A stretch of DNA of 64,000 nucleotides from an uncultured Eubacteriales bacterium (lineage in GTDB: Bacteria; Acidobacteriota; Aminicenantia; Aminicenantales; UBA4085): positions 88,263 to 152,262 of the forward strand of contig CAZKXI010000002.1 of the NCBI GenBank assembly GCA_964556755.1, given 5' to 3'. The notes below the pieces were generated by a model. That model saw nothing but the letters and a program-made list of their open reading frames with translations, was not told the origin of the DNA and ran no database searches. The position numbers and the translations under genes were made by a program. This document shows positions 6,433-33,072 of this stretch, one piece after another (position 1 is the stretch's first letter; every line of letters begins with the position of its first letter).

Positions 6433-7089
6433 TCACTGGGAGGCGTCCAGCTTGCTCGCCCTTAGGCCGGCATCGTAGCCGAAGTAGGACTGCGCGTATT
6501 CGGTCTGGACGCGCCGGAAGAGGGCCAAGGCGCCGGCCTTGTCTCCCTTCTTCTCCAAGGCCTCGGCCTTATGGAAAAGGACCGCATCCAGGACGTAGTC
6601 CTTGGGCTTGGCGTCCTCGATGGCTTGCAGGATCTTCAGACCCCCGTCGATGTCGCCTTTGAGGACGGCCACTTGGGCGGCCAGCTCCTTGGCCTGATAG
6701 TAGAAGAAATCCTTGGGCGCGTCCTTCAGCCCGGCTAAGACCGCGGCAGCTTTATCCAGATCGCCGCTCTCGACCCAGTGCGAGGCCAGCTGGGTGGCGG
6801 CCACGCGGGCGTATTTGCCCTTCTTGGCCAGGGCCTCCAGCGCGGCCGCGTTGCCGGGCGTCTTATCCAGCCCGTTGCGCAGCTCCAGGATCCGGCCCAG
6901 CTCGGCGCTGGACGATCGCGTCTGGGCTCCGCGAAGGAAGAACAGCCCGCCGAGAAGGACGGCCAGGCCGGCCAGGACGGCCAGGCCGATCAGGGCCTCC
7001 TGGCGCCAGGACTCGAAGGAGGCCATGATCCGGCCGAATATCGATACGAACTCGTCTTCTTTGAGCTTCTTCTTGATCTCGCGTTTCAT
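6433..7089 (-). CDS. TPR-repeat membrane-anchored protein (YfgM/UPF0070-like)
   Basis: Lys-rich N-terminus, single TM (IGLAVLAGLAVLLGGLFFL), Ala/Leu/Lys-rich TPR-like repeats. Confidence 0.5.
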   Translation of the reverse strand: MKREIKKKLKEDEFVSIFGRIMASFESWRQEALIGLAVLAGLAVLLGGLFFLRGAQTRSSSAELGRILELRNGLDKTPGNAAALEALAKKGKYARVAATQLASHWVESGDLDKAAAVLAGLKDAPKDFFYYQAKELAAQVAVLKGDIDGGLKILQAIEDAKPKDYVLDAVLFHKAEALEKKGDKAGALALFRRVQTEYAQSYFGYDAGLRASKLDASQ

Positions 7090-7165
7090 GGAATGCTTCC
7101 TCTCGGCCGCTTCGGACCAGCGCCCTTTTTACCATAACCGGCCCGGAAAGGGAAGCCGGCCCGCC

Positions 7166-7193
7166 TTGACATCACGGCCCGATTCCCTAAGAT
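7166..7193 (+). promoter_or_regulatory. sigma70-like promoter candidate (TTGACA-N16-TAAGAT) upstream of the HprK-like kinase
   Basis: TTGACA 7166-7171, TAAGAT 7188-7193, in the divergent intergenic region 7090-7210; the predicted TSS would fall at or after the GGAGG RBS (7194-7198), so either a leaderless-like transcript or a coincidental match. Confidence 0.25.
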
Positions 7194-7210: not shown

Positions 7211-8134
7211 ATGTCCGCTCCCTCCGCCGTCCGCTTCTTCCGCGTCGCGGGCATCACCCTGCAAGTGGCTTGCCAGGGGCCCGGACCGGCCCTGCCCTGG
7301 CATCCCAAGCTGGCCGCGTTCGAGGTCGACGGCCCCGGCCCGGACACGGTCGTCATCCGGCACCATCGATCGGCCTTTCCCGGGTCCCCGGACGGGCCGG
7401 GTCCGGCGGTCTACGACAGCCCTCCCTACCGGGTCCATGCCGCGGGCGACGGCTGGATCTACCGCATCGGCGGCGGGGGGGATGGGCGCGTCCAGACCGC
7501 CCTCTTCGCCGGAGACTACAGCCGGGCCGATATCTATACGCCGGAGCCCCTGGCGGTCCCCGAGCAGGGCTTCGAAGCCCTGACCCTGCTGCCGACGGAC
7601 CAGGTCCTCCTGGCTCCCCTGCTGGCCCTTCGGGGCGGCTGCCTCCTGCACGCCGCGGGTGTGGTCCGGGCCGGGGCCGGATGGCTCTTCGCCGGCCATT
7701 CGACGGCCGGAAAGTCCACGATCACGCGGATGATGAAGGGAAGGGCCGAGATCCTCTGCGACGACCGCATCGCCCTGCGCCCCGACGGGAGCGGGGGCTT
7801 CCGCATCCACGGGACGTGGAGCCACGGCGACGTGCCCGACATCTCGCCCTCCTCGGCCCCGTTGACGGAGCTGTTCCTGCTGCGCCAATCCGAAGGGGAT
7901 TCGGCGGCGCCCCTGCCCGACCGCCGGGACGTGGCCCGCAGCCTTCTCGATCTGGTCATCAAGCCGTTGGCCACGACCGCTTGGTGGAGCCTGACCCTGG
8001 AGGCGATCGACCGGATCTCCTCTTCGCTGCGGGCTTGGGATCTGAGCTTCAGCCTGAGCGGGGGAGTCCTTCAAGTCCTTGACCGGATCGAAGCCGGGGA
8101 GCGGGGATTTGACTTTTCCGGCCCGAGCCGCTAA
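7211..8134 (+). CDS. HPr kinase C-terminal domain-like P-loop serine kinase (HprK-related kinase)
   Basis: Walker A FAGHSTAGKST (nt ~7693-7722) followed by AEILCDDRIAL, matching the HprK GxSGxGKS...H-RLVADD arrangement; first ATG after the divergent TPR gene, GGAGG RBS at 7194-7198; TAA 8132-8134. Confidence 0.7.
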   Translation: MSAPSAVRFFRVAGITLQVACQGPGPALPWHPKLAAFEVDGPGPDTVVIRHHRSAFPGSPDGPGPAVYDSPPYRVHAAGDGWIYRIGGGGDGRVQTALFAGDYSRADIYTPEPLAVPEQGFEALTLLPTDQVLLAPLLALRGGCLLHAAGVVRAGAGWLFAGHSTAGKSTITRMMKGRAEILCDDRIALRPDGSGGFRIHGTWSHGDVPDISPSSAPLTELFLLRQSEGDSAAPLPDRRDVARSLLDLVIKPLATTAWWSLTLEAIDRISSSLRAWDLSFSLSGGVLQVLDRIEAGERGFDFSGPSR

Positions 8135-8163: not shown

Positions 8164-8334
8164 ATGAAGAAGCCGTGGACCACCCCCGAGCTTATCGTCC
8201 TGGTGCGCGTCCAGGCCAACGAGATGGTCCTCGGGACCTGCAAATCCCAGTTCGGCCTGGGGCCGGCCCGGACCAAGACCGGCTGCATGAACGTGACCGG
8301 CGACAGGGCCTGCCAGGGCCACGATAAGAGTTGA
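8164..8334 (+). CDS. 56-aa precursor-like peptide (MKKPWTTPELIVLVRVQANEMVLGTCKSQFGLGPARTKTGCMNVTGDRACQGHDKS); putative RiPP/lasso-like precursor with C-terminal Ser
   Basis: Not in ORF track (<60 aa). GAGGAG RBS 8152-8157, 6 nt before ATG 8164; starts 30 nt after the kinase stop; leader-like W-x-x-P-x-L motif, Thr at -2 before Cys41; putative core CMNVTGDRACQGHDKS has Cys1, Asp7 and a C-terminal Ser; followed by a GC hairpin 8357-8372. Confidence 0.55.
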   Translation: MKKPWTTPELIVLVRVQANEMVLGTCKSQFGLGPARTKTGCMNVTGDRACQGHDKS

Positions 8335-8431
8335 CCGGCCTCGCAGCCGCCTCTCTCCCGCCCCCGGGCGGGGAAATTGACTTCCCCATTTCCCTCCCCT
8401 AGAATAGGCCTATCTTTCGCTTCGGGAAACC

Positions 8432-14896: not shown

Positions 14897-14939
14897 GCGC
14901 GCCTGGGGTGACTCGAACACCCGACCAACGGTTTAGGAA
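14897..14939. repeat. attL: 43-bp direct repeat (3' portion of tRNA-Arg)
   Basis: gcgcgcctggggtgactcgaacacccgaccaacggtttaggaa identical to 28384-28426. Confidence 0.85.
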
Positions 14940-14956
14940 GGCGGGATATGCTGGAT

Positions 14957-16105
14957 TTAATTATAGCGTATTGAATCACTTGGGAGCCGCTTGATTTTTA
15001 CGGTGTCGACTTTTTGACGGGATGGATCCATGATTTCGCCCAGCCGCTCAACGGCCCGGCGCATGTTCTCCGGCGTCGGATGGCAATAGCGCATGGTCGT
15101 TTGAATCGACGCATGCCCGAGCACCTTGGAGACCGTGACCAGGTCGACGCCGGCCTCGACCATCTTCGAGGCCGCGGTATGCCTCAGGTCATGGAAGCGG
15201 ACTCCTGTGATCCCCGGATCATCCTCATCGTTGAGATCCGTCTTCGCCTTCCTGCAGGCCGCATGGAAGGCCGTCTTCACGTCCTGGACTGGCTTCGTCG
15301 GATCGGCGCCGGGGAAGACGTATTCCCCCTTCCTGGGAAGGACGGCCAGGGCCTCCATGACAGCGCTGTTGACGGGCACCTTGCGGCCCCTGCCGCTCTT
15401 GGAGTCCTCGATATTGATATAGCCGCGGACCAGGTCGACGTTTGTCCATCGGAGGCCCAGGATCTCGCTCCGCCGCATGCCCGTGTTCAAGGCCACTATG
15501 AGGACAGGGCGGAACGTGTTCGACGCCGACCGGAGGAGCCGATGAGCCTCTCCCGCCGACAGGATCCGCTCTCGAGCGTTGGCCTCTTTCAGCCTTCGGA
15601 CGCGTCGGATGGGGTTCTTCTCGATTCTCCCCCACTCCTCAGCCTTGTTGAAGAGGGTCTTCAGGCATGTCAGCTCTCGGTTGACCGTCGCCGGCGAGAT
15701 CGGAGCGGACTTCTTCGCGTTGTAGTGCTTGACCCGCTCGGCCCGCCGGCCGGCCTTGAACCGCTCCACGTCCTCGGAGCCGATCCCCTGGAGGGAGCGC
15801 CCGGAGAAGTAGCGCTTGAGGTTGTCCAGAAGGATCTCGTCCCGCTTCCAGGAGCGCTTGTTCTGCTTACAGTAGACCTCGAGGAATTCGTCTGCGAAGG
15901 CATCGAAGGGAACGGGATCCCCGCCAGCCTTCTTGAAGCCGAGCCGCTCATTCAGGAGCTCGATGCGGAGCTTCGCCAGGGCGTTCCGGGCCTGTTCCTT
16001 AGTGTATCCCCCGAGCTGACGGATTCGCTTCCCTCGGAAGGTGAAGTCGATATGCCACCTCCCATCCTTTTGGATTAGGTTCCGGTCATTCTTCGGTTTG
16101 ACCAT
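14957..16105 (-). CDS. int: tyrosine-type site-specific integrase (phage integrase family)
   Basis: C-terminal catalytic region RFHDLRHTAAS..LGHASIQTTMRYCH (R..HxxR..Y) and N-terminal SAM-like/arm-binding region; lies immediately inside attL. Confidence 0.85.
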   Translation of the reverse strand: MVKPKNDRNLIQKDGRWHIDFTFRGKRIRQLGGYTKEQARNALAKLRIELLNERLGFKKAGGDPVPFDAFADEFLEVYCKQNKRSWKRDEILLDNLKRYFSGRSLQGIGSEDVERFKAGRRAERVKHYNAKKSAPISPATVNRELTCLKTLFNKAEEWGRIEKNPIRRVRRLKEANARERILSAGEAHRLLRSASNTFRPVLIVALNTGMRRSEILGLRWTNVDLVRGYINIEDSKSGRGRKVPVNSAVMEALAVLPRKGEYVFPGADPTKPVQDVKTAFHAACRKAKTDLNDEDDPGITGVRFHDLRHTAASKMVEAGVDLVTVSKVLGHASIQTTMRYCHPTPENMRRAVERLGEIMDPSRQKVDTVKIKRLPSDSIRYN

Positions 16106-16315
16106 CGCGTCCTCCCCCTCCCGCTCACGCGTTAGGATTGGGAGAGGGAGCCGAAGCCCCCTCTCCTGGTCGACCTTGTCGCCCTCGCCTTACCTCTTCC
16201 AGCACCTTGACGGGCAAGGATTCATCAACGCGGATCCGGCCGAACAGCAGATAATTCTCGATCATCATCTGAATCATCTCCGACTTCCGTTCGTCCATGA
16301 TCCGGATTGAACCTC

Positions 16316-16498
16316 TCAGGCCGTCTTCCCGGCCTTGACGCGAGTGATGGCCTTGCCCAGCCCGTCCGCGATAGTCTGGAGGCGGGTCCGCTCCGAAGGG
16401 CGCATGATCCAAGACAGCTCTTCGATCATGCCCAAAATTGCCCGTCTCATTTCCTCGGCCACATCGACCAGCCCTGCCATCGCCTCAGGATCTGTCAT
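16316..16498 (-). CDS. small hypothetical phage-like protein
   Basis: 60-aa ORF overlapping the next gene's end by 14 nt; no domain recognised. Confidence 0.25.
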   Translation of the reverse strand: MTDPEAMAGLVDVAEEMRRAILGMIEELSWIMRPSERTRLQTIADGLGKAITRVKAGKTA

Positions 16499-16928
16499 TG
16501 TTCCCCGTCCCGGCTACGTAGACCTTGCCGAGCCGGCTGATGGCGCCGTGTGCTTCGACATAGGCGGTCAGCAGCTCAGCTGCAGCCTTGGCCTGATCGA
16601 TGGAGAGGACAAGCTCGAGCCCGCCCCCGGCCTTGTCCTTGAAGAAGACGGCTGTGGTTCCGTCGACGGTTCGCTCCCCGTCTGTCGATACCTCGGACGA
16701 GATGGTGGCCTCAGCGTCGCAGAGCCAGGCCATGATATCGGCCTTCTCCAGCGCCGGCTTGCAGTCCTCGAACTTGATCTCGAGATCGAGCTCGATTCCA
16801 GGGCCATCCTCAACCTCGAGGGCAAGCCCCTTTCCCCCATCGACCAGGGCCCGAGGGCCCTTCGCCTTGATTGCCCCGCCGAAGCGGAATGCTCCCGCGG
16901 CTCCAGTTGGTTCTGCTTTCTGTTTCAT
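16485..16928 (-). CDS. hypothetical phage-like protein
   Basis: Start at internal Met (MKQKAEPTG..) with AAGAGG RBS; 147 aa; no family recognised. Confidence 0.4.
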   Translation of the reverse strand: MKQKAEPTGAAGAFRFGGAIKAKGPRALVDGGKGLALEVEDGPGIELDLEIKFEDCKPALEKADIMAWLCDAEATISSEVSTDGERTVDGTTAVFFKDKAGGGLELVLSIDQAKAAAELLTAYVEAHGAISRLGKVYVAGTGNNDRS

Positions 16929-16947
16929 GAATGACCTCTTGGGAGCT

Positions 16948-17253
16948 TCAGCTGGCAGCCGTAGCGGCCCGGCCATCCAGGAACAGGTCCGACAATCCAT
17001 CCAGGATTTCAGCAGCCAAAAGCCGACGCGACGCGGTCGCCATATCCGCGCTCATTTCGCGCCATACCTTGCCGAAGAGCAGCATCCCCCTCCTTGCTTC
17101 AGCGCTGTCCCTGAGCATCCGAGCGAACTCCTCCGCCGCCAGCTGCAGCTTCTCGTTGCCCGGCATGGGCCCCCGGGCAGACGCTACCCCCACTTTGCGC
17201 CGGCGCTTGATTGCCGGAGCGGCCTTGACCACCGCGGACTTCTTGGACTTCAT
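16948..17253 (-). CDS. hypothetical Lys/Arg-rich small protein
   Basis: Start at MKSKKSAVV with AGGAGG RBS; basic N-terminus. Confidence 0.4.
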   Translation of the reverse strand: MKSKKSAVVKAAPAIKRRRKVGVASARGPMPGNEKLQLAAEEFARMLRDSAEARRGMLLFGKVWREMSADMATASRRLLAAEILDGLSDLFLDGRAATAAS

Positions 17254-17275
17254 CGATCCTCCTTGAAGGGAAAAT

Positions 17276-17482
17276 TTATTTACGACGCCTCGAGGCGCTC
17301 GTAGCGGTTTCTTCGACGCGGCCTTGGAGGTACTGACCAAGGTCGGCCGGATCGATTCGGACCAGACGGCCGACGCGGTACACCTTCAACCGGCCGGAAT
17401 TGATGATCTTGTACGCAGTCGCTCGACTTACCTTGAGGATCCGCCGCAAATCCTGCGGACTTAACAGCTCCATCGTGTTCAT
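17276..17482 (-). CDS. excisionase/AlpA-like helix-turn-helix DNA-binding protein
   Basis: MNTMELLSPQDLRRILKVSRATAYKIINSGRLKVYRVGRLVRI: HTH typical of the excisionase-family DNA-binding domain; AGGAGAA RBS. Confidence 0.55.
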   Translation of the reverse strand: MNTMELLSPQDLRRILKVSRATAYKIINSGRLKVYRVGRLVRIDPADLGQYLQGRVEETATSASRRRK

Positions 17483-17542
17483 CGTTTTCTCCTGTGGAGT
17501 GATGGGGGCGGTCCCGCCCGCCCCCTTCCTCCCTTCCATTGC

Positions 17543-17788
17543 CTAGCGTCCCCGGACCGGGATCAGATAGCCGCAGAGGGCCCTCCGGTTCCCGCGTCGG
17601 ATCAGCACCGAATGACGGAGGGAACGAAACATCCCGCCGTCTTCGTGGAGCGCCTCGAAGTGAGCGCGGAAGCGATGAGCAGCGGGCTCCGATCCGCGCA
17701 TCACCTCGGCCTGGAGGCAAGCCATGCACTCCTCGGCCTGGAAGTCCGCCGGGATTGGCTCCGGCCGGCGCTTCCTTCGTCCGAACAT
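17543..17788 (-). CDS. hypothetical protein
   Basis: 81-aa ORF in island, Cys/His-containing, no family recognised. Confidence 0.25.
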   Translation of the reverse strand: MFGRRKRRPEPIPADFQAEECMACLQAEVMRGSEPAAHRFRAHFEALHEDGGMFRSLRHSVLIRRGNRRALCGYLIPVRGR

Positions 17789-17933
17789 GTCAGACCTCCT
17801 CAGGGCAAGTCTTATGACCAGCCCTCTGTATTCCTTACTATAACATTATATCACTTAATAGCACTTTGTCAAGTGGCATTGTGGCGTCGGATTCGCCTTC
17901 GTTGTAGAATCAATCCTGCGCTGGGATTAGAAA

Positions 17934-18140
17934 ATGCCCGACAAGAAAACCTCAAATGATCTCATGACGAAACAAGAGGTCATGGCATATCTCAGGATCA
18001 GCCATCAGACCCTCTTCCGGATGATGAAATCGGGAGCTTTCCCCTACTTCAAGCTCGAGCGGAAGGTACTGTTCCGGAAGTCTGACGTCGACGCTTACCT
18101 GGAAGCCCACCTAGTGACCCCGACGCGGTCCCGGAGATAG
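17934..18140 (+). CDS. excisionase-family helix-turn-helix DNA-binding protein
   Basis: LMTKQEVMAYLRISHQTLFRMMKSGAFPYFKLERKVLFRKSDVDAYL: canonical excisionase-family HTH; low-GC context. Confidence 0.6.
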   Translation: MPDKKTSNDLMTKQEVMAYLRISHQTLFRMMKSGAFPYFKLERKVLFRKSDVDAYLEAHLVTPTRSRR

Positions 18141-18550
18141 CTCCTATCTTCCTTTGCCCCCTGCCTCCTTTGGCCGAGCTCCTGGAGATCGCCAGTCCTG
18201 GGCCGCAGGATGCACGCTGCGGGCCTCTGTGGCCGATAACTTGAGCCGGGGATGGGTAGGGTACAGGGGAGGCGGAGGGCAAAGCCAGCAGTGCTGGATT
18301 TGCCGGCTCAGGAATTGAGCGCGGGAGCTTTCCTTCTTCGTCAGGCCAAGTTCGGATAAGGTCGGGGCGTCATCACGCGGTTCCACGTAGGCACCGCGTG
18401 GCCCCGTTTTCGTTCCGCCGGCCTTTGCGCCCTGCGCCCGATCTGTAGCGGCCAGCAACTCCCCGAGCTTGCGCTCGGCCCGTAGGGCGTTCGGCCAGGG
18501 CGTCCTCGCCGGCAGGACAAGAGCGGGCGCTTGACCGGTCATCGCTCCGG

Positions 18551-20659
18551 CTATCCATTCCATTTCTTCACGCTGAACTTGCCCACCTCGCCGGCGTCCT
18601 GGACCGTGTCGACGATGAACTCCGACACCTTGCGCCCTCCAATATCGAAGTGAAGGTGATACGTCGCCTTCATTCCACGCCGACGATCTCCCAGCATGGA
18701 CTTTCCACGCGGCGAATCGAGCGGGATGATGGCCTCGGGGCCCGCTTCGCCGGCCAGGAATCCGCCGCCCCGCGAGACAGCCGGTCCGTCGAGAATACCG
18801 CCCTCGGCCAGCGGCGCCGGCTGGGCCTTGATCGCCGCGATCTGGATCGCCCCCTGCGCCAGCGCCAGCGCCAGCATGATCGGCCCCAGGGGCAGGAAGG
18901 GCTTTGTCGCCAGCGCGGAGGTAGCCGCCATCGCGGTATTGATCATCGCCTCGGCGATGGCCCATGACTTCTCTTTGTTCCACGCCTCGCGCTTTGCCGC
19001 CGCCTTCTTGCCCTCGAACTCCTCATCGAGCGCTTCGAGCGCCGCCGCTTTCTCCTCCTCGCTCATCAGGCTGTCTTCGATGGCCTTCTTTCGGGCCTCG
19101 TACTCGGCATTGAGACGCTCTAGATCCCGGTCCAGGTTGGCCTGGTGCAAGGCGTCGATGGCGCCGAAGACGCCGGAGGCGGCCTGGCCGAGGTTCTGCA
19201 TGTCGGAGAGGATCTTGTTGATCTTGGTCTCCCAGGCCTGCTTCGCCGTCTCCGCCGCCTCAACCGCCGCTTGCCCGGCGGCCAGGAAGCCCATGCGCAT
19301 GGGGCCGAGGATCTCATTCTGACCTTCCTCCATCGCCTGGAACACGCCCTTCCAGCCATCATCCGTTTCCTCGATGATGCCGGGGATCTCATCGTCGAGA
19401 GTCTTTGTCAGCTTGAGATACTTCTTAATCTCATCGTTCACATCATCGACGGCCTTGGCTTGGGCCTTCCAGCCTTTATTGATCTCGCCCAGGGTCTTGC
19501 TCTGCTGCTTGATCGGCCCGTCGCTGGCGCGCCCGACTTCGTTGACACCGCCGGCCGCCTCACGCGCCGCGCTTCGGAACGCGTCAAGGATAGCCGGGCC
19601 CTTCTCGGTCTCCATAAGCAGGGCCTTCAGCTTGATCCCGTTGACCTCGTAGGAGGCCCCGGTCGAGTCAAGGAGCGCGACAAGCTCGGCCTGGCTCTTG
19701 CCCTCGCGTACATGGAGCGGGATCGACTTGACGACCTCGTCCGAGTATTCGCGGGCGCTGAACGCTAGCCGGCCGAACTGCGCCGAGGTCATGCCAGCCG
19801 AAAGCGCCGCGTCGCGCAACCGGTTGGAGAAATCGACATTCCTTTCCGTCGCCTCGGCCGTTGCCCTCCGGACCTCATCTTGGGTTGCAATGAGATCGAG
19901 CAACGTATCGGCCGCGTCTTTCACCTTGGAGACAAAGGGGCCCAGGGCATCCTTCAAGACGTTGCCAAGCGCCTCCTTGAGCTCGCCGATGGATTTTGTC
20001 GCCTGGCTTAGCTGCCCGCCGAAGGTATCGGTCTCCGCCGTCGAGCGCTGATACATCGTCTCCAACTGGCGAAGCAACTCGGCCTGCTTCTCCATCGGAG
20101 ACAGGCTCTCGTCGACCTTGATACCGACGCGGCCGAGGGCCTGGTAGCTCCCTTCGAGCCCCTTTGTCACCATCATGGTCGCCGAGTGAAGGTCGGTCCC
20201 CATCGTGGACGCCAGCCCCATCGCGCCCTTCATAGCCCGGTCAATGCCCTGCTGGTCAAGGTCCGTCAACTGGAGCATCAGCGCCTGAGCGGCCTCGATC
20301 TCGTCATCCGTGTAGCGCGTCGCCCGCTGTTGCGCCGAAGCCCAGGCCGTGTAATGCGCCAGGTTGCCTTCGACCGTCCGGCCCGTGGATTCCAGCGCCG
20401 CCCTCAGATTCCGGTCGGCCTGCTCCTGCTCCATCGCGCCCTTGATCGAGTCGCGGAACAGGTCCACCACCTCGCGCCCGGCCCGCTGGAACAGCTGCGC
20501 CGCGATCTGCCCGGCGGCGAACTGCTTCCACAGCCCCCCGAGCGCGGAGTCGGTCTTCGGGGCCTGGCCGCTCATCTCCTCCAGCGAGGCGTTCACGTCG
20601 CGGATCTTCTTGGCGCTATCTCCCGTATTGGCACGAATGTCGAGGTTTACATCGGGCAT
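18551..20659 (-). CDS. phage tail tape measure protein
   Basis: 702 aa, long Ala/Glu/Lys/Leu-rich coiled-coil, internal hydrophobic segment (LPLGPIMLALALAQGAIQIAAI), typical of a tape measure protein. Confidence 0.6.
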   Translation of the reverse strand: MPDVNLDIRANTGDSAKKIRDVNASLEEMSGQAPKTDSALGGLWKQFAAGQIAAQLFQRAGREVVDLFRDSIKGAMEQEQADRNLRAALESTGRTVEGNLAHYTAWASAQQRATRYTDDEIEAAQALMLQLTDLDQQGIDRAMKGAMGLASTMGTDLHSATMMVTKGLEGSYQALGRVGIKVDESLSPMEKQAELLRQLETMYQRSTAETDTFGGQLSQATKSIGELKEALGNVLKDALGPFVSKVKDAADTLLDLIATQDEVRRATAEATERNVDFSNRLRDAALSAGMTSAQFGRLAFSAREYSDEVVKSIPLHVREGKSQAELVALLDSTGASYEVNGIKLKALLMETEKGPAILDAFRSAAREAAGGVNEVGRASDGPIKQQSKTLGEINKGWKAQAKAVDDVNDEIKKYLKLTKTLDDEIPGIIEETDDGWKGVFQAMEEGQNEILGPMRMGFLAAGQAAVEAAETAKQAWETKINKILSDMQNLGQAASGVFGAIDALHQANLDRDLERLNAEYEARKKAIEDSLMSEEEKAAALEALDEEFEGKKAAAKREAWNKEKSWAIAEAMINTAMAATSALATKPFLPLGPIMLALALAQGAIQIAAIKAQPAPLAEGGILDGPAVSRGGGFLAGEAGPEAIIPLDSPRGKSMLGDRRRGMKATYHLHFDIGGRKVSEFIVDTVQDAGEVGKFSVKKWNG

Positions 20660-20711
20660 GATCTTGCTCCTGTGCTTGGTGTCTGACTGTCATCCGATTC
20701 CGGGCAACGGC

Positions 20712-21170
20712 TCACCCGCGGCCCAGGATTTTCATGATCTCATCGTCGAAATACTTCTTCAGGAGATCGCGCTTCGCCGTGTCTGAGAGGTTCATGAACA
20801 TCCGCTGCGGGATCTTCCCGCCGGCTGTGCCCATGTTGTGGAAGTAGGCGATCAGCTCCATGCGCCCCTTGACGGATACCCGGCCATGATGCGGACTCAG
20901 TACCTCCGTCAGGATGGAATCCAGCATCTCGCCGGTCCTCCGGAGGTCGACGCTTCCGGCGCTGACCCCCTTGCGCTTCGCGTAGGCCTCTGAGTAGGGC
21001 TTGAACTTCTTCCCCATGTAATCGACCCCTCGAGCGGTCTTGCGGAGGATGATCCTCTTCACCTCTTCGACGAGCTTCTGCATGGGTTCGGCGGACTCCA
21101 GGAATTCCTCGATCCGCCGCAGCTGGCCGATGGACGCGGCCAGCCCGCGGATGTTGACAGAATCGCCCAC
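20712..21170 (-). CDS. phage virion morphogenesis (tail completion, Mu gpG-like) protein
   Basis: 152 aa; size and composition resemble the phage virion morphogenesis family; adjacent to tape measure. Confidence 0.4.
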   Translation of the reverse strand: MGDSVNIRGLAASIGQLRRIEEFLESAEPMQKLVEEVKRIILRKTARGVDYMGKKFKPYSEAYAKRKGVSAGSVDLRRTGEMLDSILTEVLSPHHGRVSVKGRMELIAYFHNMGTAGGKIPQRMFMNLSDTAKRDLLKKYFDDEIMKILGRG

Positions 21171-21195
21171 CTGATCGCTCCGCTGCCGTTGCGCT

Positions 21196-21522
21196 TCAGT
21201 CGGAACGATCCGCCCGCGAGAAATGGAACTGAATCAGGCCCTGAAAGTCCCGGTCCCCGATCTGGTGCAGATCGTGGAGCACGGCCGCCCTCCGGTCCGC
21301 GAAGTCCCGATTCAGGGCCGTCAGCTCGTTCTTCGCCTCGGAGATCGCGCCGAAGTCCGTCACGTCCGGATCCGCGATCGTCGCCCGGCATCGTCTCATC
21401 TTGGCCAGGATGACGTCGCATTCCTTGACGGCCGCCTCGATCTTCTGCTTCTTCTCCTCTTCCCCCGCCGTTATCCCCGCCGCGATTCTTTCAAGTGGGT
21501 CCATGTTGTTCTCTCCTATCAT
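21196..21522 (-). CDS. hypothetical phage protein
   Basis: Acidic coiled-coil-like 100-aa ORF. Confidence 0.3.
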   Translation of the reverse strand: MIGENNMDPLERIAAGITAGEEEKKQKIEAAVKECDVILAKMRRCRATIADPDVTDFGAISEAKNELTALNRDFADRRAAVLHDLHQIGDRDFQGLIQFHFSRADRSD

Positions 21523-21755
21523 TCCTTGTTCGTCTGCCCCTGCCCGCCGGTGCTCGTATCGACCCGAAGGCAGACACCGCTCCGGATCAGGGCATCCCAG
21601 GCCGCCCGGTCGACCGCCGTCTCGATGGTCTCGAAGATCGCCAGCGGCCGCGGTGCATGCCTTGTCATGTCCACCAGGAAGCGCCGGCCGTCCATGAGGC
21701 CGACGTGGATCTGGCCGTCATCGTCGAGACGCAGCTCGACAGCCTTGGTGCGCAT
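21519..21755 (-). CDS. hypothetical phage protein
   Basis: 78-aa ORF, 4-nt overlap with the downstream gene. Confidence 0.3.
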   Translation of the reverse strand: MRTKAVELRLDDDGQIHVGLMDGRRFLVDMTRHAPRPLAIFETIETAVDRAAWDALIRSGVCLRVDTSTGGQGQTNKE

Positions 21756-21765
21756 GGCCGACCAG

Positions 21766-22164
21766 TTACCCGATCAGCGCTTTCGCCGCCGCGTCATAGT
21801 CGGGCGTCACGTCCAGCCAGCCCAGCTGCCGAATCCCGTTCAGCGCAGTCAGCCGGTCGGTCGTGCTCCCGACGCCGTTGGAGAAGTCGACTCCGGCAAC
21901 GGCCCCGTTGAGGCCGGCGCCGCCCTGCAAGTGCTGAACGTAGTAGACGACGGGCCGGCCGTCGATCAGCCGCACGTGGCCGGGGACGTACATCTCGGCC
22001 AGGGAAGAGGTCGGCCCGGCGCAGGTGTCCTCGCAGCCGTGACTGTGAACCGCCGTCCATGCCGTGTAGCGGGAGGACGTGGTCCCCATTCCGCCGACGA
22101 AGTCGATCCCCCAGGCCGTCCCGGTGTACCCGGCAACCGGATGCTTCAGAGTGTAGGTCTCCAT
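21766..22164 (-). CDS. hypothetical phage protein (G[IV]DF..G.G.TSS motif, paralog of 22181-22537)
   Basis: Start METYTLKHP at 22164 with GGAGG RBS; motif GIDFVGGMGTTSS. Confidence 0.4.
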   Translation of the reverse strand: METYTLKHPVAGYTGTAWGIDFVGGMGTTSSRYTAWTAVHSHGCEDTCAGPTSSLAEMYVPGHVRLIDGRPVVYYVQHLQGGAGLNGAVAGVDFSNGVGSTTDRLTALNGIRQLGWLDVTPDYDAAAKALIG

Positions 22165-22180
22165 GATAAACCTCCAATGT

Positions 22181-22537
22181 TTAAGATTCACGGCCCGCCA
22201 AGGCCGAGTTTTGCGATGCCGATTCCGCGGGCTTCGGGGTCCGCTCTGCCTCATCCGAAATATCAACGCAACCGAGCTCATACACCATCCAATCCCGATC
22301 GAGGATGCTGGAGGTCGAGCCCCTTCCATCGCTGAAATCGATCCCCCCGAAAACGCCGGTAAACCCCGGCCGGGGATGCCTCAGACAATAGACCAGCCGC
22401 TTGATCCTGGGAGCCCCGCCTACGCCCGGAAATGCCTTGCGCTCCTCCAGCCGCTTCTGCAACCGTCGCAGCTCATCGAGCAGCTGCAGATAGTGGGTCT
22501 TTAACAGGCCCATCCGCTGGTCTTCTTCATAGAGCAT
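22181..22537 (-). CDS. hypothetical phage protein (paralogous motif GIDFSDGRGSTSS)
   Basis: Shares the G[IV]DF-x-GxGxTSS motif with the neighbouring gene; start uncertain (22537 or 22564). Confidence 0.35.
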   Translation of the reverse strand: MLYEEDQRMGLLKTHYLQLLDELRRLQKRLEERKAFPGVGGAPRIKRLVYCLRHPRPGFTGVFGGIDFSDGRGSTSSILDRDWMVYELGCVDISDEAERTPKPAESASQNSALAGRES

Positions 22538-24086
22538 GGCTTTCCTCGCTCCGGAGCTGGGCAAGCTCCCCCTCGAGCCGCCTCGTCCAGGCCCGGATCT
22601 CCTCGGCCGCCATGCCCTCGAGCTGGGTCGGGTAGGGCATCGACAGATCGAAGGGATCCGTCAGCCATTGGGACGGCGACCCATTCCATAGGGCCGTTAT
22701 GACTACCCCTCGATTCGCGCCACAGCCGACGCAGACCCCTGCCGCGGCGTTGGCAACGTCATCCTGGGCATTCGGGAAATGGTCGACGGAATCCTTGCCG
22801 CCCGCCCTGGCCCGACGCTCCAGGCTCCGCAGCTGCTCCCGCAGCCGGGCATTGTCCAGGAGCTCGACCCGGTTCTGCATGACCAGCGGGAGAAACTCCA
22901 GATAGATAGCGCTCTTGTCCTTGTCCGATGGGATGTAGCGGATCCCATACTTCCGGAAGGCATCCGCCGGCCACTCTCCCCCGTAGCGGTCTCCCGTCAC
23001 CCTCTCGATCCCGTAGGATCGAAGGAGCTGGGCGTAGTCGGACACAACCGACTCCGGGGCGAAGGGCGGACGCCTCTCCTCGAGGGCGTCCAGGATCACC
23101 TTGCCGCGGGGATCTCGATGGGCTATGGCCAGCGTGAAGCTGTCCCGGCGCCCGCCGCTGGGATCTACGAAGGCCTCGTAGATGCCGCGGTATGCCCGCG
23201 GGAGCCGCGTCCGGTCGGGCACTATGACGGACTCGATCGCCTCGGACGTCAGGTAGCTCTCGAGGTCCGACCTGAAATTGGCATTCCATTCCGATTCAGC
23301 GGCAGCAGCGTCGGCGCGGAAGGCCCGCTCGATCAGCCGCTCCTTGATGGTCGGATTCATGGCCCTGGTCGGGGCCTGCCATACCAGGGCGTCCTCATCC
23401 TCGCGCCCCCACTTGTCGCGGAAGGCCTCGTACAGGACGCCCGATTTCGAGTAGGGGCTCGAGATGCCGAAGATCATCCCGCCGGGGATCGTCGCCAGGG
23501 ACGGCCGCAGAGCGTTCAGCACCTCCGCCGCCGGATTCGTACCCTCGGCCCGCCAGAAGGCCAGCTCGTCGCAGATCGCGGCGACGACGGTATAGCCCCG
23601 GAGGGCGCGGTAGCTGCATGTTCCGATCTTGATGCCGACCTGATTCCGAAGGCTGATCTCCCAGGCCAGGTCACTCTCGACCTCCTGGCCCAGGATCTTC
23701 GAGGAGCTCAGGATTCCCTTGATGTAGCCCAGGATATTCCGGGCCTGATCACGGTCGGTGGCGATGACCATAACCCAGGCCGTCTCGCCGGCCGCCAGGT
23801 AGGGGCGCCAGTCATGGAAGAGCGCCAGATAACAGGCCAGGATCGCGGCCATGAAGCTCTTCCCCCCGCGGCGCCCGACGATCGCATAAACCTCGGCAGG
23901 CATGCGCTCGGGGAGATTCTCCCGCCCGGTGTACCTCCGGAAGGCCTCGAGCTCATCGGGGTCCATCGGCAGACAAAAGACGGCCTTCAGGAAGACGATC
24001 CAGTTGCGCCAGGTATCCATGTCCTTGAACATCCGGCCGAACAGCTGCCGATCGCCTAGGGCGTCCAGGATCGTGAATTCGCTCAT
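22527..24086 (-). CDS. terL: phage terminase large subunit
   Basis: 519 aa; N-terminal ATPase with Walker A-like VGRRGGKSF and downstream nuclease-like region; typical terminase_6-type architecture. Confidence 0.75.
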   Translation of the reverse strand: MSEFTILDALGDRQLFGRMFKDMDTWRNWIVFLKAVFCLPMDPDELEAFRRYTGRENLPERMPAEVYAIVGRRGGKSFMAAILACYLALFHDWRPYLAAGETAWVMVIATDRDQARNILGYIKGILSSSKILGQEVESDLAWEISLRNQVGIKIGTCSYRALRGYTVVAAICDELAFWRAEGTNPAAEVLNALRPSLATIPGGMIFGISSPYSKSGVLYEAFRDKWGREDEDALVWQAPTRAMNPTIKERLIERAFRADAAAAESEWNANFRSDLESYLTSEAIESVIVPDRTRLPRAYRGIYEAFVDPSGGRRDSFTLAIAHRDPRGKVILDALEERRPPFAPESVVSDYAQLLRSYGIERVTGDRYGGEWPADAFRKYGIRYIPSDKDKSAIYLEFLPLVMQNRVELLDNARLREQLRSLERRARAGGKDSVDHFPNAQDDVANAAAGVCVGCGANRGVVITALWNGSPSQWLTDPFDLSMPYPTQLEGMAAEEIRAWTRRLEGELAQLRSEESHAL

Positions 24087-24451
24087 CGGGGCTGTCCCTC
24101 GCCACGGCCCCCATCGTCGACGTCCCAGGAGGGCCGGGAAGGGCCTAGGCGCCGCTTCCAGAAGGATTCCCGGCGGGAGGTCAAGGATTCGGCATCCAGG
24201 GCCTCTCTGCGCTCGTCAAAGTAAGGCTTTGCAGCCTCCAGCGCCGCCAGGAGCTCGGGGAGCATGCGAAGCTTCACGGTCACGCCGCGGCCCGTAGGCG
24301 CAACCTCGTCTCTCCCTTCCTCCGGGCAGGGCAGCTTGTAGACGCGGACGTCCAGGTAATCGACCCCGTTGTGCACGACGCCGGCGATCTGCACCTCCTC
24401 GTAGCGGTTCTTTCGGAGTACGGCCAGGATTTCGCGGCTGTCGGGCCTCAT
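24083..24451 (-). CDS. hypothetical phage protein
   Basis: Start MRPDSREIL at 24451 overlapping the upstream gene's stop (ATGA); no family recognised. Confidence 0.35.
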   Translation of the reverse strand: MRPDSREILAVLRKNRYEEVQIAGVVHNGVDYLDVRVYKLPCPEEGRDEVAPTGRGVTVKLRMLPELLAALEAAKPYFDERREALDAESLTSRRESFWKRRLGPSRPSWDVDDGGRGEGQPR

Positions 24452-24966
24452 GACTGGACTCCTTCGGGGGCCGGCTGCGGGGCCCGCTTCTCTTCCTTCT
24501 TGGCGTCGATGTAGCGGCCCAGGTCCAGGCACTCGGCGGACTTGCGCTTGTCGATCCCCAGAGCCTGCAGCTCCAGGCGGAGGGAATTCGTATAGGCCAG
24601 ATAGAAGTCTCGGAGCGCCGGATCCAGCTCGCCGCCCTTGAAGATGCCTGTCTCCCTGGCATGCTCCTCGATCACGCGTAGAACCCCGAGCTTGGTCACG
24701 GCCCGGTCGATCAGGATCCGCTGGGCAGTCGTCAGATCCTGCTCGAGCGGGCCCAGGTCTCGGACCAGGCCGCAGCGGGCCTCGGCCAGGTAGGCCCGGA
24801 GCCATCGCCGACGCTCGGGGAGCTCGCCCCTGGTGAGGTAGGAATACCCGCCATGTACCGGAGGGCGCCCAATCCTTCCCTTGACCTTCAATTTTTGATC
24901 CGTTTTCGCGGTCAGCTGGTCGTTTTTCATCATGTTGATTTCATTAAAGATATGATTTTGGGCCAT
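24448..24966 (-). CDS. putative terminase small subunit / DNA-binding packaging protein
   Basis: ~160 aa basic protein upstream of terL with a putative HTH near the N-terminus; AT-rich start region, start uncertain (24930-24966). Confidence 0.35.
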   Translation of the reverse strand: MAQNHIFNEINMMKNDQLTAKTDQKLKVKGRIGRPPVHGGYSYLTRGELPERRRWLRAYLAEARCGLVRDLGPLEQDLTTAQRILIDRAVTKLGVLRVIEEHARETGIFKGGELDPALRDFYLAYTNSLRLELQALGIDKRKSAECLDLGRYIDAKKEEKRAPQPAPEGVQS

Positions 24967-25104
24967 TGGAAAACCGCCCCAAAAGTCGACAAATGCCCAG
25001 TTTTACAGGGGAAAACGGTGGTTTTATAGACCGTTGGTTTAGGGCAATTCCGGGGCATTCCAGGGGGTCCAGGAGGGGTACTCGGCCGAGAATTTCGTCT
25101 CAGA

Positions 25105-25319
25105 ACCTGTTCCCGCCCACTCCGTTTTTTTCGACCCTCGGGAACAGGTTTTTGCCCTATACCAGTCTCCGACCTGTTCCCATGTCGGGAACAGATCCAA
25201 CAGGGGGAAAGCGTCGATCTGTCCGACCTGTCCGGACCTGTTCCCATACCTCCGGAACAGATGGTCAACCTGACTTGTTCCATTGTTCCCCCCCCTAGGG
25301 GGGAACATGGGAACAGGTC
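25105..25319. repeat. iteron array: >=9 copies of GGAACAG(G/A)T or ACCTGTTCCC, several as inverted pairs, plus the near-palindrome GTTCCCCCCCCTAGGGGGGAAC
   Basis: Seen directly at 25105, 25140, 25172, 25188, 25236, 25254, 25274-25290, 25301, 25310; sits immediately downstream of the replication ATPase gene and upstream of terS. Confidence 0.7.
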
Positions 25320-25332
25320 GACTTGGGCCAGA

Positions 25333-26706
25333 TCAATCATGGATTGCCTCATAGAGCCTGCGGCGGCCTTCCAGGCGTGACCGCCAGCTGGCGCCCTCCC
25401 CGCGAAGGAGTAGCGCCAGCGCCTTCCCTCGCCGGCCGATCTCGAGCTCCTCCTTGATCCACTCGATGAGGGCGGATTGCGTGAGCGGTCCTGGGGCTTG
25501 TCTGAGATGGTCTGCAATCGCGTCGATCCGGTCCTGGTCGGGGCTTGCGGCCAGCGTGAACAGCCCTTCCGGCGTCCGCTGCAGGAACGTCTGGGCCGGG
25601 GCGAAGCGGGACTTCTCCCCCGTCCCCAGCCGATAGAGCGCGTCGGGATCCGGTTCGCCGTCGTCCTCGATCTTCTGAAACGTCGAACGCTTGACGGGGT
25701 ACAGGCTCAGGGCGCAGTCGGCCAGGTCGACGATGGTGCTTGATCCCTTGCTTACGCGCTCGTTCGATTTCGGCGTGTGATGCGCCGCCTGAACGGTGAA
25801 GCCGCAGCTGGTCAGCTCGCGGAGGCGCCCCATGACCAGGCTCATGATCTCGTCGTCATTCTGCGTCCCGCTGTGGGAGCTTCTGAGGGTATCGAAAACG
25901 AGAAGGCTCCCAGCGGGGAGGCGCTTGTAGACGTCCCATCGGTCGGAGTCGAGCTTGGGAGGCGGCGTCGAGAAAGAGTAATGCCACAGGCTGATATCGT
26001 TGGCTCCGATCAGGCGGATCCTGTCGGCAACCCATGCGATCGGATTCTCATAGTCGATGATGACGACGGGGCGGCGCTTCGTCGGCAGGGAGAATATTGG
26101 ATTGCCGGAGGCGACGGCCTGGCCCGATTGCATGAAGAAGGTCGACTTGCCGGTGCCGCCTCGGGAGATCACAACCGTGACGGCCTTGTCGACCACGAGC
26201 TGATCGACGACGTACTCGATCGAGACGTCCAGGGCGGCAACCTCGCTTCCCGACATCAGGAAACGCGCCGGGTCGACCTCAGCCGGGCCCTTCGCAAGCT
26301 CCTCAATCTCTCGGTCGAGGATGCCGAGCAGCGCCTGGGCTTCGGTGTCCCAGGTTCCCGTTGCCTTGTAGTTGCGGATCTCGCGCTCGAGCAGCTTGGC
26401 TCGTTCCGAGTACTTCCGCTCGAGGCGCAGGGCTTGCACCTTAGCCTCGAATCCCGCCGGCGGCAGGAGATAGCAGCCGGAGAGCTCTTTGAATAGGGCC
26501 TCGAGGGAGCTGCCGCATTTGGCCGAGAGAAGGCCGTCCTCTACGGGCTTGGTCGGATCGTCCTCGCTGAGCTCAAGGATGGCCTCGGCAATCTTCCGCC
26601 GCGGCCCGGTGAAGAGGCCGACCGCGTAGCCTTCTGCGCGCTGCCGCTCGGGCTGCTCCTTGGCCGTGAAGAGAAGCTCACGTTCTAGAGTAATAGGGGA
26701 ATTCAT
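25333..26706 (-). CDS. RecA-fold AAA ATPase, replicative helicase/primase-associated (RepA/DnaB-like) protein
   Basis: Walker A VVISRGGTGKSTF, Walker B-like LLVFDTL; start MNSPITLE at 26706. Confidence 0.55.
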   Translation of the reverse strand: MNSPITLERELLFTAKEQPERQRAEGYAVGLFTGPRRKIAEAILELSEDDPTKPVEDGLLSAKCGSSLEALFKELSGCYLLPPAGFEAKVQALRLERKYSERAKLLEREIRNYKATGTWDTEAQALLGILDREIEELAKGPAEVDPARFLMSGSEVAALDVSIEYVVDQLVVDKAVTVVISRGGTGKSTFFMQSGQAVASGNPIFSLPTKRRPVVIIDYENPIAWVADRIRLIGANDISLWHYSFSTPPPKLDSDRWDVYKRLPAGSLLVFDTLRSSHSGTQNDDEIMSLVMGRLRELTSCGFTVQAAHHTPKSNERVSKGSSTIVDLADCALSLYPVKRSTFQKIEDDGEPDPDALYRLGTGEKSRFAPAQTFLQRTPEGLFTLAASPDQDRIDAIADHLRQAPGPLTQSALIEWIKEELEIGRRGKALALLLRGEGASWRSRLEGRRRLYEAIHD

Positions 26707-26786
26707 GCGCCGCTCCCGCCGTCCGGGAGCAGCCAATCACTCGTCTTTGTTGCCATGCTGACCTACCGGGAAAAAGATGTATGCGA

Positions 26787-26990
26787 CTACCTCGGTTTCC
26801 TCTTCGTGGGGATGGAGCTTTTCTCGAGCTCGCGCTCTACGGCGGCCCAATCGACTCTGAGGCCGAAATGGGGCGGCCGCGAATGCGGGAGCTGGCCGGC
26901 CGAGATCAAGTTGTAAATGCGCTTGACCGAAAGCCCCAAGCGCTCGGCCGCCTCGGCGGGACGCAGCCAGCGGCGGACTATTTCAGACAT
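26787..26990 (-). CDS. excisionase/MerR-like helix-turn-helix DNA-binding protein
   Basis: MSEIVRRWLRPAEAAERLGLSVKRIYNLISAGQLP: HTH; ATG overlaps the upstream gene's stop. Confidence 0.5.
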   Translation of the reverse strand: MSEIVRRWLRPAEAAERLGLSVKRIYNLISAGQLPHSRPPHFGLRVDWAAVERELEKSSIPTKRKPR

Positions 26991-27240
26991 GGGCCGTCTC
27001 CTCGTGTTTGGAGTCGCCGGGCTCGATGGCCGGAAGAGGGCCTGGAAAGAGAAACCCCTCGGAGACGCCGAGGACGGCCGCGAGCCTAGAGGCCTGAGCA
27101 GCAGTCGGCAGCTCCCAGCCCCGCGAGATTCTGCTGAGGCGTGACGGGTGAAGCCCCGCGAGCGCCGCAAGCTGAATCTGGGGTAGGCCGCGGAAACGCA
27201 AAAGCTCTGCGATTCGGTTGGTTGGGGCTTCGTTCCTCAT
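26983..27240 (-). CDS. XRE/Cro-CI family HTH transcriptional regulator
   Basis: IAELLRFRGLPQIQLAALAGLHPSRLSRISRG: canonical XRE HTH; palindromic operator-like sequence just upstream (27305-27333). Confidence 0.6.
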   Translation of the reverse strand: MRNEAPTNRIAELLRFRGLPQIQLAALAGLHPSRLSRISRGWELPTAAQASRLAAVLGVSEGFLFPGPLPAIEPGDSKHEETAHV

Positions 27241-27304
27241 ACCCCAAATATAGACCGACAGAAGGAACTAATCAATGCTCATCTTATTTATTTACAACTA
27301 TTTA

Positions 27305-27333
27305 GACACTTTTTCTCGACGAGATAAAGTGTC
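27305..27333. promoter_or_regulatory. operator-like inverted repeat GACACTTT-N13-AAAGTGTC upstream of the Cro/XRE-like gene
   Basis: 8-bp perfect arms at 27305-27312 and 27326-27333 in an AT-rich intergenic region; a TTGACA (minus strand, 27330-27335) overlaps the right arm. Confidence 0.4.
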
Positions 27334-27355
27334 AATAAGACCGGAGGGCGAGGTT

Positions 27356-28096
27356 TTATATGCAGCCAGCAAGCGAGATTAAGTCGGCGATTGTCTCTAC
27401 ACCCTTCCTGATATGCGTCATAGAACACGGGCCCAAGCCACCCCATCGGCGCCAGTTTTGAGCTATGTATTGATAGCTTGGGCGAGTCGGCGTTTCCCTG
27501 AGATCGTACCAGCAGAGGTTTCTAAAGAAAGCGGGCTTGGTCCGTTCCTCTTTCTCGACCGCGTAGACTCGACCGATTTCGGATTTGATCCCCCCCCACA
27601 TGCCCTCCCATTCTCGCTGATTGGTCCAAGGGCTGATCCGAACATAAATGAACGCCTCTTCACGCCCGACGAACTCCTGCCAACAGTCGCCGCGACGATC
27701 CACCATCGACGCGGCATCCGGGCTCTGCATGACCTCGGCCAGGCTTCTCGGTCGCCCCGGACGTTTCGGCGCTGGATGGATAATATACTGACGAAGCTCG
27801 GGCCCTTCGGGGCCTTGGGGCCGGAGAGGACGACGGCAGATGATCTCGCTCCGGTAGACGAATCGCTCGATCGTCGCCAGGTCTCCGCTCCATTGCAGAT
27901 TGATCCTCCACCTCGAGCAGAAGTCGCCCCACTCATCAGAATATGAAAGTCCCCGGCTCTCCCCGCAGTGATCGAGCTGGCGGATGAATTCTTTGTTTCG
28001 TCGAAGCAGCTCGGCTCGCGCCAGGATCGGATCGAATGGGCGTTTGCTCTCCTCGATCTTGCGATTACGGAGATCAGGATCGATCTGAATAGCCAT
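27356..28096 (-). CDS. hypothetical cargo protein (no recognisable domain), in low-GC segment next to attR
   Basis: 246-aa ORF, Trp/Arg-rich, in distinctly AT-richer DNA between the repressor genes and the att site. Confidence 0.4.
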   Translation of the reverse strand: MAIQIDPDLRNRKIEESKRPFDPILARAELLRRNKEFIRQLDHCGESRGLSYSDEWGDFCSRWRINLQWSGDLATIERFVYRSEIICRRPLRPQGPEGPELRQYIIHPAPKRPGRPRSLAEVMQSPDAASMVDRRGDCWQEFVGREEAFIYVRISPWTNQREWEGMWGGIKSEIGRVYAVEKEERTKPAFFRNLCWYDLRETPTRPSYQYIAQNWRRWGGLGPCSMTHIRKGVETIADLISLAGCI

Positions 28097-28383
28097 GTCC
28101 GCCTCCCTGTGGCAGATCCCCGATTAAATAGAACCGGGCCAAGCGGTCAGGGATGATCCGCCGTTCGGGAGCGACCCTAGGCCCGGCTGATGTCATGGAT
28201 AGGTTCCTTCCTCAAACATAGGGTCCGCAACGGAGCAACGCAAGCGTCAATTTTGAGTGTCGACTTTTATGACGTGTTTTTTCGGTTTGGGCGGGATTTG
28301 GCGGGAATTGGCGGGAATGAGCCCCAAGGGCAAGGCTACGCGTAATGCGTTGATTTCTCAAGGTTTTAAGGGGTAAAAGGCAA

Positions 28384-28426
28384 GCGCGCCTGGGGTGACT
28401 CGAACACCCGACCAACGGTTTAGGAA
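28384..28426. repeat. attR: 43-bp direct repeat within tRNA-Arg 3' half
   Basis: Identical to 14897-14939. Confidence 0.85.
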
Positions 28427-30980: not shown

Positions 30981-30994
30981 GATGGCTATCCTTT

Positions 30995-33070: not shown

Positions 33071-33072
33071 TC

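Follow-up and report, generated by a model that had tools for sequence, protein, structure and literature searches.

The lasso-peptide kinases PadeK, ThcoK and PsmK contain a P-loop and a DD-motif, and their substrate is a ribosomal precursor with a C-terminal Ser (PMC6993621). PadeK and PsmK, which are homologues of HprK, phosphorylate this C-terminal Ser, and the D158A/D159A mutant of PsmK is inactive, which shows that the DD motif is needed (PMC6993621). The ScmC protein described here, which is encoded in a 64-kb stretch of DNA (i.e., the window, the whole of the sequence that was analysed), likewise contains a P-loop and a DD-motif, and the peptide encoded beside it ends in Ser, as the lasso precursors do, and carries a W-x-x-P-x-L leader. 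When compared by motifs and context, however, the window differs from the lasso systems in having no lasso cyclase, B1/B2 or transporter, and ScmC, unlike the lasso kinases, has a PEPCK-like N-terminal beta domain.

The HPr kinase/phosphorylase (HprK/P) shares its fold and catalytic layout with ScmC at an identity of only 12–16%, but its N-terminal domain is different and the window locus offers no HPr or PTS context. ATP/GTP-dependent PEPCK also resembles ScmC in fold, with 10–13% identity; ScmC is half its size, and an oxaloacetate or PEP chemistry is without support for ScmC. Among the HprK-related kinases A and B (TIGR04352 and TIGR04355), only B gives a match, which is weak, partial and confined to the P-loop region, and PqqD, their partner according to the original prediction made for this DNA, is absent from the window.

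The best sequence-family match of the window protein is ScmC of the SynChlorMet (SCM) cassette (TIGR04249; PF27840), with which it shares the invariant motifs PTDQ, H, GHSxAGKST, LCDDR, HGTWSHGD and WW. An ScmA-like precursor with the same leader adjoins the window ScmC. The window locus differs from the SCM cassette, however, in being without radical-SAM, PqqD and S24 genes, and its ScmC falls below the TIGR04249 cut-off. Our literature search on the SynChlorMet cassette and ScmC found no relevant or experimental work, and the paper in which HPr kinase, RiPP and radical SAM occur together mentions the kinase in lasso clusters only.

The window ScmC and its family

The original prediction recognized an HprK-type catalytic arrangement in the window protein, and this was borne out: the P-loop and the ILCDDRIAL segment occur at the positions given in Table 1, and the fold comparison agrees, as an HprK-type catalytic domain with its His, Walker A motif and DD metal site is present in ScmC. 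The codon-position GC of the ORF is similar to that of the real neighbouring genes in this window of ~68% GC. The homologue search returned 654 homologues, and PF27840 (named "ScmC" in Pfam) was precomputed on all 120 of those listed, including P0001, which is 96% identical to the window protein across 100% of its length. The PF27840 membership of the window protein is assigned via the annotation of these homologues and the conserved columns, as the Pfam release that was run predates PF27840 and gave zero matches at E ≤ 0.01, Hpr_kinase included.

The top NCBIfam match was TIGR04249 ("SynChlorMet cassette protein ScmC"; E = 5.4e-12), a partial match over residues 141–251 whose 45.7 bits lie below the equivalog cut-off of 125. 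The ScmC of L006, a locus with a full cassette, is likewise under this cut-off, at 30.7 bits. The second match, also partial, was HprK-related kinase B in the P-loop region (E = 2.5e-7), with 30.1 bits against a cut-off of 200; HprK-related kinase A was unmatched, and TIGR00679 was absent from the NCBIfam matches. For the HprK profiles, the fold and motifs that had been expected were recovered, but membership of Hpr_kinase, TIGR04352 or TIGR04355 was not.

In an alignment of 27 members of the ScmC family, the residues T129-D130-Q131, H147, G162, S164, G167-K168-S169, D184-D185-R186, G201-T202-W203-S204-H205-G206 and W258-W259 (numbered as in the window protein) are invariant, and every invariant column is kept in the window protein. 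When the profile of the family alignment was compared with the PDB, HPr kinase structures appeared only marginally (E ~0.02), among generic ABC/GTPase P-loops, so that the fold comparison was needed; in the profile matches, the His, P-loop and DDR superimpose on the catalytic motifs of HprK. We conclude that the window protein belongs to ScmC (PF27840), a third HprK-like family whose nearest NCBIfam model is TIGR04249, and its assignment to ScmC together with an HprK/PEPCK fold is virtually certain.

Table 1. Positions of the features discussed in the text, with the evidence for each or its location
Feature	Position	Strand	Evidence or location
ScmC-family protein, HprK/PEPCK-fold P-loop, 307 aa	7211..8134	+	Motifs, profile matches, homologues, fold
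P-loop FAGHSTAGKST	Residues 160-170; nt 7688-7720		ScmC gene
ILCDDRIAL, holding the DDR motif	Residues 181-189; nt 7751-7777		ScmC gene
Predicted ScmA-type precursor peptide, 56 aa	8164..8334	+	Homology, synteny, dN/dS, end motif
Sigma-70-like promoter (predicted), TTGACA-16-TAAGAT, 5' of ScmC	7166..7193	+	Consensus match, clade conservation
Second sigma-70-like promoter (predicted), TTGACT-17-TAGAAT, 5' of kinase/cyclase	8377..8405	+	Consensus match, clade conservation
Hanks Ser/Thr kinase, C-terminal TPR region, 939 aa	8432..11251	+	Pfam Pkinase, E 2.6e-51
FHA + adenylate/guanylate cyclase, 307 aa	11248..12171	+	Start overlaps kinase stop (ATGA)
TPR protein, 218 aa, divergently transcribed	6433..7089	-	In every clade locus
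Tyrosine integrase	14957-16105	-	Integrative element
AAA_25 protein	25336-26736	-	Integrative element
HTH_17 excisionase-like protein	26790-27236	-	Integrative element
MscS-type channel with cNMP-binding domain	28507-30195	-	Cyclic-nucleotide cluster

The precursor peptide and its C-terminal motif

As the original prediction implied, the kinase is accompanied by a short peptide that ends in Ser: the adjoining ORF codes for a 56-mer with Ser56 as its last residue (MKKPWTTPELIVLVRVQANEMVLGTCKSQFGLGPARTKTGCMNVTGDRACQGHDKS). Its start codon lies 29 nt from the stop codon of ScmC, with a Shine-Dalgarno-like sequence in the gap. The ORF contains a K-K-x-W-x-x-P-x-L leader, a Cys-containing core and a C-terminal Ser/Thr: the leader MKKPWTTPELIVLVRVQANEMVLGTCK is followed by a core with C26, C41 and C50, which ends as C50-QGHDK-S56. 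It is homologous to the 58-residue peptide of the full cassette L006 (phmmer E = 9e-5), and a peptide is found directly 3' of ScmC in every locus of the clade to which the window belongs, at a spacing of 29–70 nt, next to orthologues that are 53–96% identical to the window enzyme. Taken together, the sequence comparisons identify ORF 8164–8334 as the cognate ScmA-type precursor of the adjoining ScmC. Because this precursor is encoded so close downstream, the kinase is not truly the standalone one that had been predicted.

The leader of the precursor family reads K-K-x-W-x-K-P-x-L-x-V-L-x-R-G-x-P-E-E-x-V-L-x-x-C-K and precedes a hypervariable core with 3–4 Cys. Of 92 unique precursors obtained at the fetched loci, 91 have Ser or Thr as their final residue, and in 73 of the 92 the last Cys stands exactly six residues ahead of the final one. 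A second sample consisted of 120 database precursors (P0241–P0360); all of them end in Ser or Thr, and 104 have the last Cys at this position. It should be noted that the second sample was gathered with a profile made from the first set, and the two samples are therefore not fully independent, although a profile match to a precursor does not force the ORF to stop directly after the Ser/Thr. The five residues between the last Cys and the terminal Ser/Thr vary across precursors. None of the ScmA-like precursors of L006–L084 and P0241–P0360 had a Pfam or NCBIfam match, and wherever they are named in the sources they are called "hypothetical". The comparative work thus defines a precursor family, and its strongly conserved C-x5-Ser/Thr C-terminus provides a concrete candidate target site. 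At one locus from Dehalococcoidia (L020:10968–18603), eleven different ScmA-like precursor ORFs stand in a row 3' of one ScmC cassette.

A scan for sigma-70-like sites between 6900 and 8600 detected two (Table 1), compared with 0.1 expected from shuffled sequences; both are consensus matches and as such predicted rather than mapped starts. Both hexamers of the site 5' of ScmC are kept in all six aligned clade loci, with L004 reading TGAGAT. Together with the 29-nt gap and the Shine-Dalgarno-like sequence, this conserved upstream site is the basis for a single ScmC-peptide operon, and the two genes are apparently transcribed together from it. The second site is kept in the window, L001, L107, L109 and L008 and probably marks the start of a separate transcription unit for the kinase and cyclase downstream. 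RNA folding detected no significant structure or terminator in the spacer between the peptide and kinase genes (z = 0.81). A block between the divergent ScmC and TPR genes, 5' of the ScmC promoter-like site (window 7085–7165; ACCATA ... AAAGGAAAG), is invariant in six clade loci.

Cassette genes around ScmC and their absence from one clade

In a census of 185,579 species genomes, with one genome scanned per species, at least 356 contained ScmC relatives, and these belonged to many anaerobic bacterial and archaeal phyla. From the 356 stretches that encode such relatives, 78 loci were fetched, and their six-frame ORFs were searched with the partner proteins of L006. At L006, whose ScmC homologue is 47% identical, the order of genes is radical SAM, ScmC, radical SAM, PqqD, S24-like peptidase, radical SAM and the 58-residue peptide; its partner proteins are only distant relatives of ScmD, ScmE and ScmF. 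Outside the window's clade, 75 of 76 loci have radical-SAM ORFs that adjoin or overlap ScmC, sometimes in the same frame. Thus, the system is normally tightly clustered. Most of these loci also have PqqD, S24 and from one to eleven precursors, and the one exception (L068), which has no radical-SAM ORF next to ScmC, still has PqqD, S24 and a precursor. The normal partners of the ScmC family are therefore radical-SAM enzymes, PqqD and an S24-like peptidase, and not the lasso-type enzymes that the original prediction cited.

Among the loci surveyed, only the window's clade is without all of these partners. The clade consists of the window, L110, L001, L008, L107, L109, L004 and L115, where L001 is the same region as the GenBank locus L007 (UBA4085 Aminicenantes) and L008 is from Acidobacteriota STD1_136; its assemblies include GCA_002383325.1 (UBA4085) and GCA_040961635.1, and the STD1_136 contig is JAQULS010000088.1. 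When the six-frame ORFs of the 64-kb window were searched by phmmer with the radical-SAM, PqqD and S24 proteins of L006, no match was found at E < 10, and Pfam detected no radical SAM, PqqD, Asn-synthetase-like, transglutaminase-like or PTS gene among the window's genes. Nor were partners found within 10 kb on either side, or up to the contig end, of the seven related loci, which also have no lasso cyclase or protease genes. The window therefore has none of the neighbouring radical-SAM maturases that define an SCM-type cassette, nor the PqqD and S24-like peptidase that usually accompany them, and it is practically certain that the partner genes are absent in cis. In this respect the original prediction was correct: no PqqD gene neighbours the kinase, no lasso cyclase, leader protease or PTS genes occur in the window, and no lasso B/C genes lie just outside the locus, be it in the 64 kb or at the related loci.

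In a neighbour-joining tree, the clade is monophyletic, with a sister (L055) and nearest relatives whose cassettes are full, which argues that the reduced state is derived and arose when the partner genes were lost. Scanning metagenomes with the window protein yielded no further members of the clade, only relatives with full cassettes at 34–44% identity. Pairwise dN/dS values within the clade are 0.22–0.40 for ScmC and 0.05–0.17 for the peptide, and the peptide is 79–100% identical to that of the window at clade loci where ScmC is only 53–96% identical. These values indicate that both are under purifying selection, although for an enzyme a dN/dS of 0.3–0.4 is somewhat on the relaxed side. All six aligned clade members retain the family-invariant catalytic residues. 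The locus is a real, conserved and reduced form of a peptide-modification (RiPP) system that is defined computationally and uncharacterised, and ScmC and the peptide very probably form a functional enzyme-peptide pair.

The L115 locus (L115:6900–13112) lies on a 311-kb contig (ERZ25039513 contig_20164) and, compared with the window, has single frameshifts in the genes for ScmC, M50 and the Hanks kinase. The truncation of its ScmC was considered as a sign of a pseudogene and rejected, as frameshifts in three genes of one contig are more likely assembly indel errors than pseudogenes.

Proposed activity of ScmC and alternative explanations

The best explanation of these observations, to which we give a probability of roughly 0.55, is that the window encodes a reduced SCM-type module that consists of an ATP-dependent phosphotransferase (ScmC) and its cognate ScmA-type precursor, the partners having been lost from the locus. 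Elsewhere, ScmC would act in a cassette with two or three radical-SAM enzymes, to which a leader-binding chaperone (PqqD) and a leader peptidase (S24-like) are mostly added. In the reduced module, ScmC would bind the conserved W-x-x-P-x-L leader of the peptide and transfer phosphate from ATP to the peptide by means of the P-loop Lys168, the Asp184-Asp185 metal site and His147. The acceptor would most probably be Ser56, the invariant C-terminal residue that closes the C-x5-Ser motif, and its hydroxyl would be phosphorylated in the cleft between the two PEPCK-like domains of ScmC. The 56-mer is probably the substrate of ScmC; that its C-terminal Ser hydroxyl is the site of modification is a more tentative proposal. 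Substrate, site and chemistry are inferred, and for the phosphoacceptor we rely on conservation and analogy: the near-universal C-terminal Ser/Thr of the precursors makes the C-terminus the likely target of ScmC, and the conserved C-x5-[ST] end combined with the precedent of the lasso kinases led to the proposal that ScmC phosphorylates the terminal Ser. The C-terminal peptide phosphorylation suggested in the original prediction is hence plausible. It should be noted that the C-x5-[ST] end could instead be a site of radical-SAM crosslinking. The motif is, however, kept in the clade without radical-SAM genes: after their loss, the two features that persist jointly are C-x5-[ST]-COOH and ScmC.

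The main, remaining serious rival, although an unlikely one, is that radical-SAM, PqqD and S24 genes located elsewhere in the same genome mature the peptide in trans, in which case the product would be a crosslinked peptide of the usual SCM type, and the locus would be unusual in its gene order only. Strong purifying selection acts on the W-x-x-P-x-L leader, on the conserved "CK" junction and on all three Cys, as leader-dependent radical-SAM maturation would require, and full cassettes are present in other Aminicenantes genomes (L011, L037, L048 and L050). The tight clustering with ScmC in nearly all other loci and the lack of partner genes around all eight clade loci speak against it, as does the leader segment, which reads "RGxPEE" in full cassettes and has turned into "RVQ(A/T)NE" in the clade. 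Very unlikely is the explanation that ScmC and the peptide are a functionless remnant that has been decaying since the radical-SAM genes were lost. It would account for the missing partners, for the higher dN/dS of ScmC than of the peptide and for the ScmC frameshift of L115; the low dN/dS values, the intact catalytic residues and the conserved promoter-like site argue against decay, the peptide is better conserved than the enzyme, and the L115 frameshifts extend to neighbouring genes in a way that suggests assembly errors. That the protein is a lasso-peptide or PTS-type HPr kinase without its cluster is scarcely credible. The HprK-like motifs and fold fit such a kinase, and the W-x-x-P-x-L leader and C-terminal Ser of the peptide resemble those of kinase-associated lasso precursors, as the precursors of paeninodin type have a comparable leader and end. 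The protein matches neither Pfam Hpr_kinase nor TIGR00679, however, the window has none of the Asn-synthetase-like, transglutaminase-like or PTS genes that would be expected, and the family as a whole belongs, by sequence and context, to radical-SAM cassettes. The lasso-cluster reading was ruled out by the assignment to the ScmC family and by gene context.

The genes 3' of the peptide raise the question of whether ScmC, the peptide, the Hanks kinase and the FHA-cyclase cooperate in signalling, with the FHA domain reading the phosphorylated peptide and thereby controlling cyclic-nucleotide synthesis. Phosphopeptides are ligands of FHA domains, the four genes are adjacent and co-oriented in 7 of the 8 clade loci, the peptide has conserved Thr residues, and a cNMP-gated MscS channel and a CHASE2 cyclase are encoded further along the window. 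The Hanks kinase also has two NCBIfam matches far under the cut-offs, a weak one of residues 442–823 (its TPR region) to TIGR04510 ("putative peptide modification system cyclase"; E = 3.6e-18) and one of its kinase domain to TIGR03903 ("TOMM system kinase/cyclase fusion protein"; E = 1.9e-42). We nevertheless regard this cooperation as quite unlikely. The kinase-cyclase pair has its own conserved promoter-like site, and orthologous pairs (53–55% identity) occur in another neighbourhood, with neither ScmC nor peptide, in all three loci examined, so that the cyclase is paired with the kinase in loci without ScmC as well and functional coupling to ScmC is downgraded. At L008 (10474–10705), the Hanks kinase gene is deleted, leaving the promoter-like site and the first codons (ATGAACA...) with the FHA-cyclase directly after them, yet ScmC, peptide and cyclase are kept. 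No Hanks kinase or FHA-cyclase was found near ScmC in any of the 76 full-cassette loci. As the whole neighbourhood is syntenic in the clade, including HypF, a double-zinc-ribbon protein (DZR), the M50 peptidase, a ferredoxin and the TPR protein, adjacency is of little weight, and FHA domains prefer pThr to a C-terminal pSer. Although the original prediction took the Hanks kinase and FHA-cyclase as partners of ScmC, they are most likely a module independent of it, whose adjacency reflects clade synteny, and they would constitute a separate signalling module that is next door by chance. In L112, L113 and L114 (8001–12600 in each), the two-gene module of kinase-TPR and FHA-cyclase is conserved on other metagenomic contigs, preceded by a PolyA_pol (poly(A) polymerase-family) gene and followed by a gene for an LEA_2 protein; the closest named homologues of these kinases are from Aminicenantes.

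A bolder version of the reduced module, which we consider improbable, is that ScmC installs a C-terminal modification on C-x5-[Ser/Thr]-COOH without radical-SAM chemistry, which would make the clade a minimal two-gene pathway. By one route, phosphorylation of the terminal Ser/Thr would be followed by elimination and by attack of the Cys six residues upstream, and the product would be a seven-residue C-terminal (methyl)lanthionine-like ring, formed in a way unrelated to that of the LanB, LanM, LanKC and LanL enzymes. In a variant, a stable C-terminal phosphopeptide would serve as an intracellular signal for the neighbouring FHA-cyclase.

The main value of the locus is that of a minimal system for ScmC chemistry, together with the newly defined end motif of the precursors. 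As the two-gene version dispenses with radical-SAM enzymes, chaperone and protease, a single enzyme and its 56-residue peptide could suffice for approaching the chemistry of ScmC. Were ScmC to phosphorylate the terminal Ser, the range of HprK-type peptide kinases would reach beyond lasso peptides and take in another class of ribosomal peptides that is unrelated to them.

Further along the window, a 13.5-kb integrative element (14897–28426) lies between perfect 43-bp direct repeats (14897–14939 and 28384–28426), the second of which is the 3' part of a tRNA-Arg(CCT) gene (28384–28458, minus strand). The GC content of the element is 60–64%, compared with ~68% for the window. It is followed by a cyclic-nucleotide gene cluster on the minus strand (28507–34174) that encodes the MscS channel, a metallo-beta-lactamase-fold protein and the CHASE2-guanylate cyclase; between 30.2 and 34 kb, long frames overlap and codon-position GC is mixed, and the gene limits there are approximate. 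An MscS-cNMP channel and a lactamase are likewise encoded near the ScmC locus of L004.
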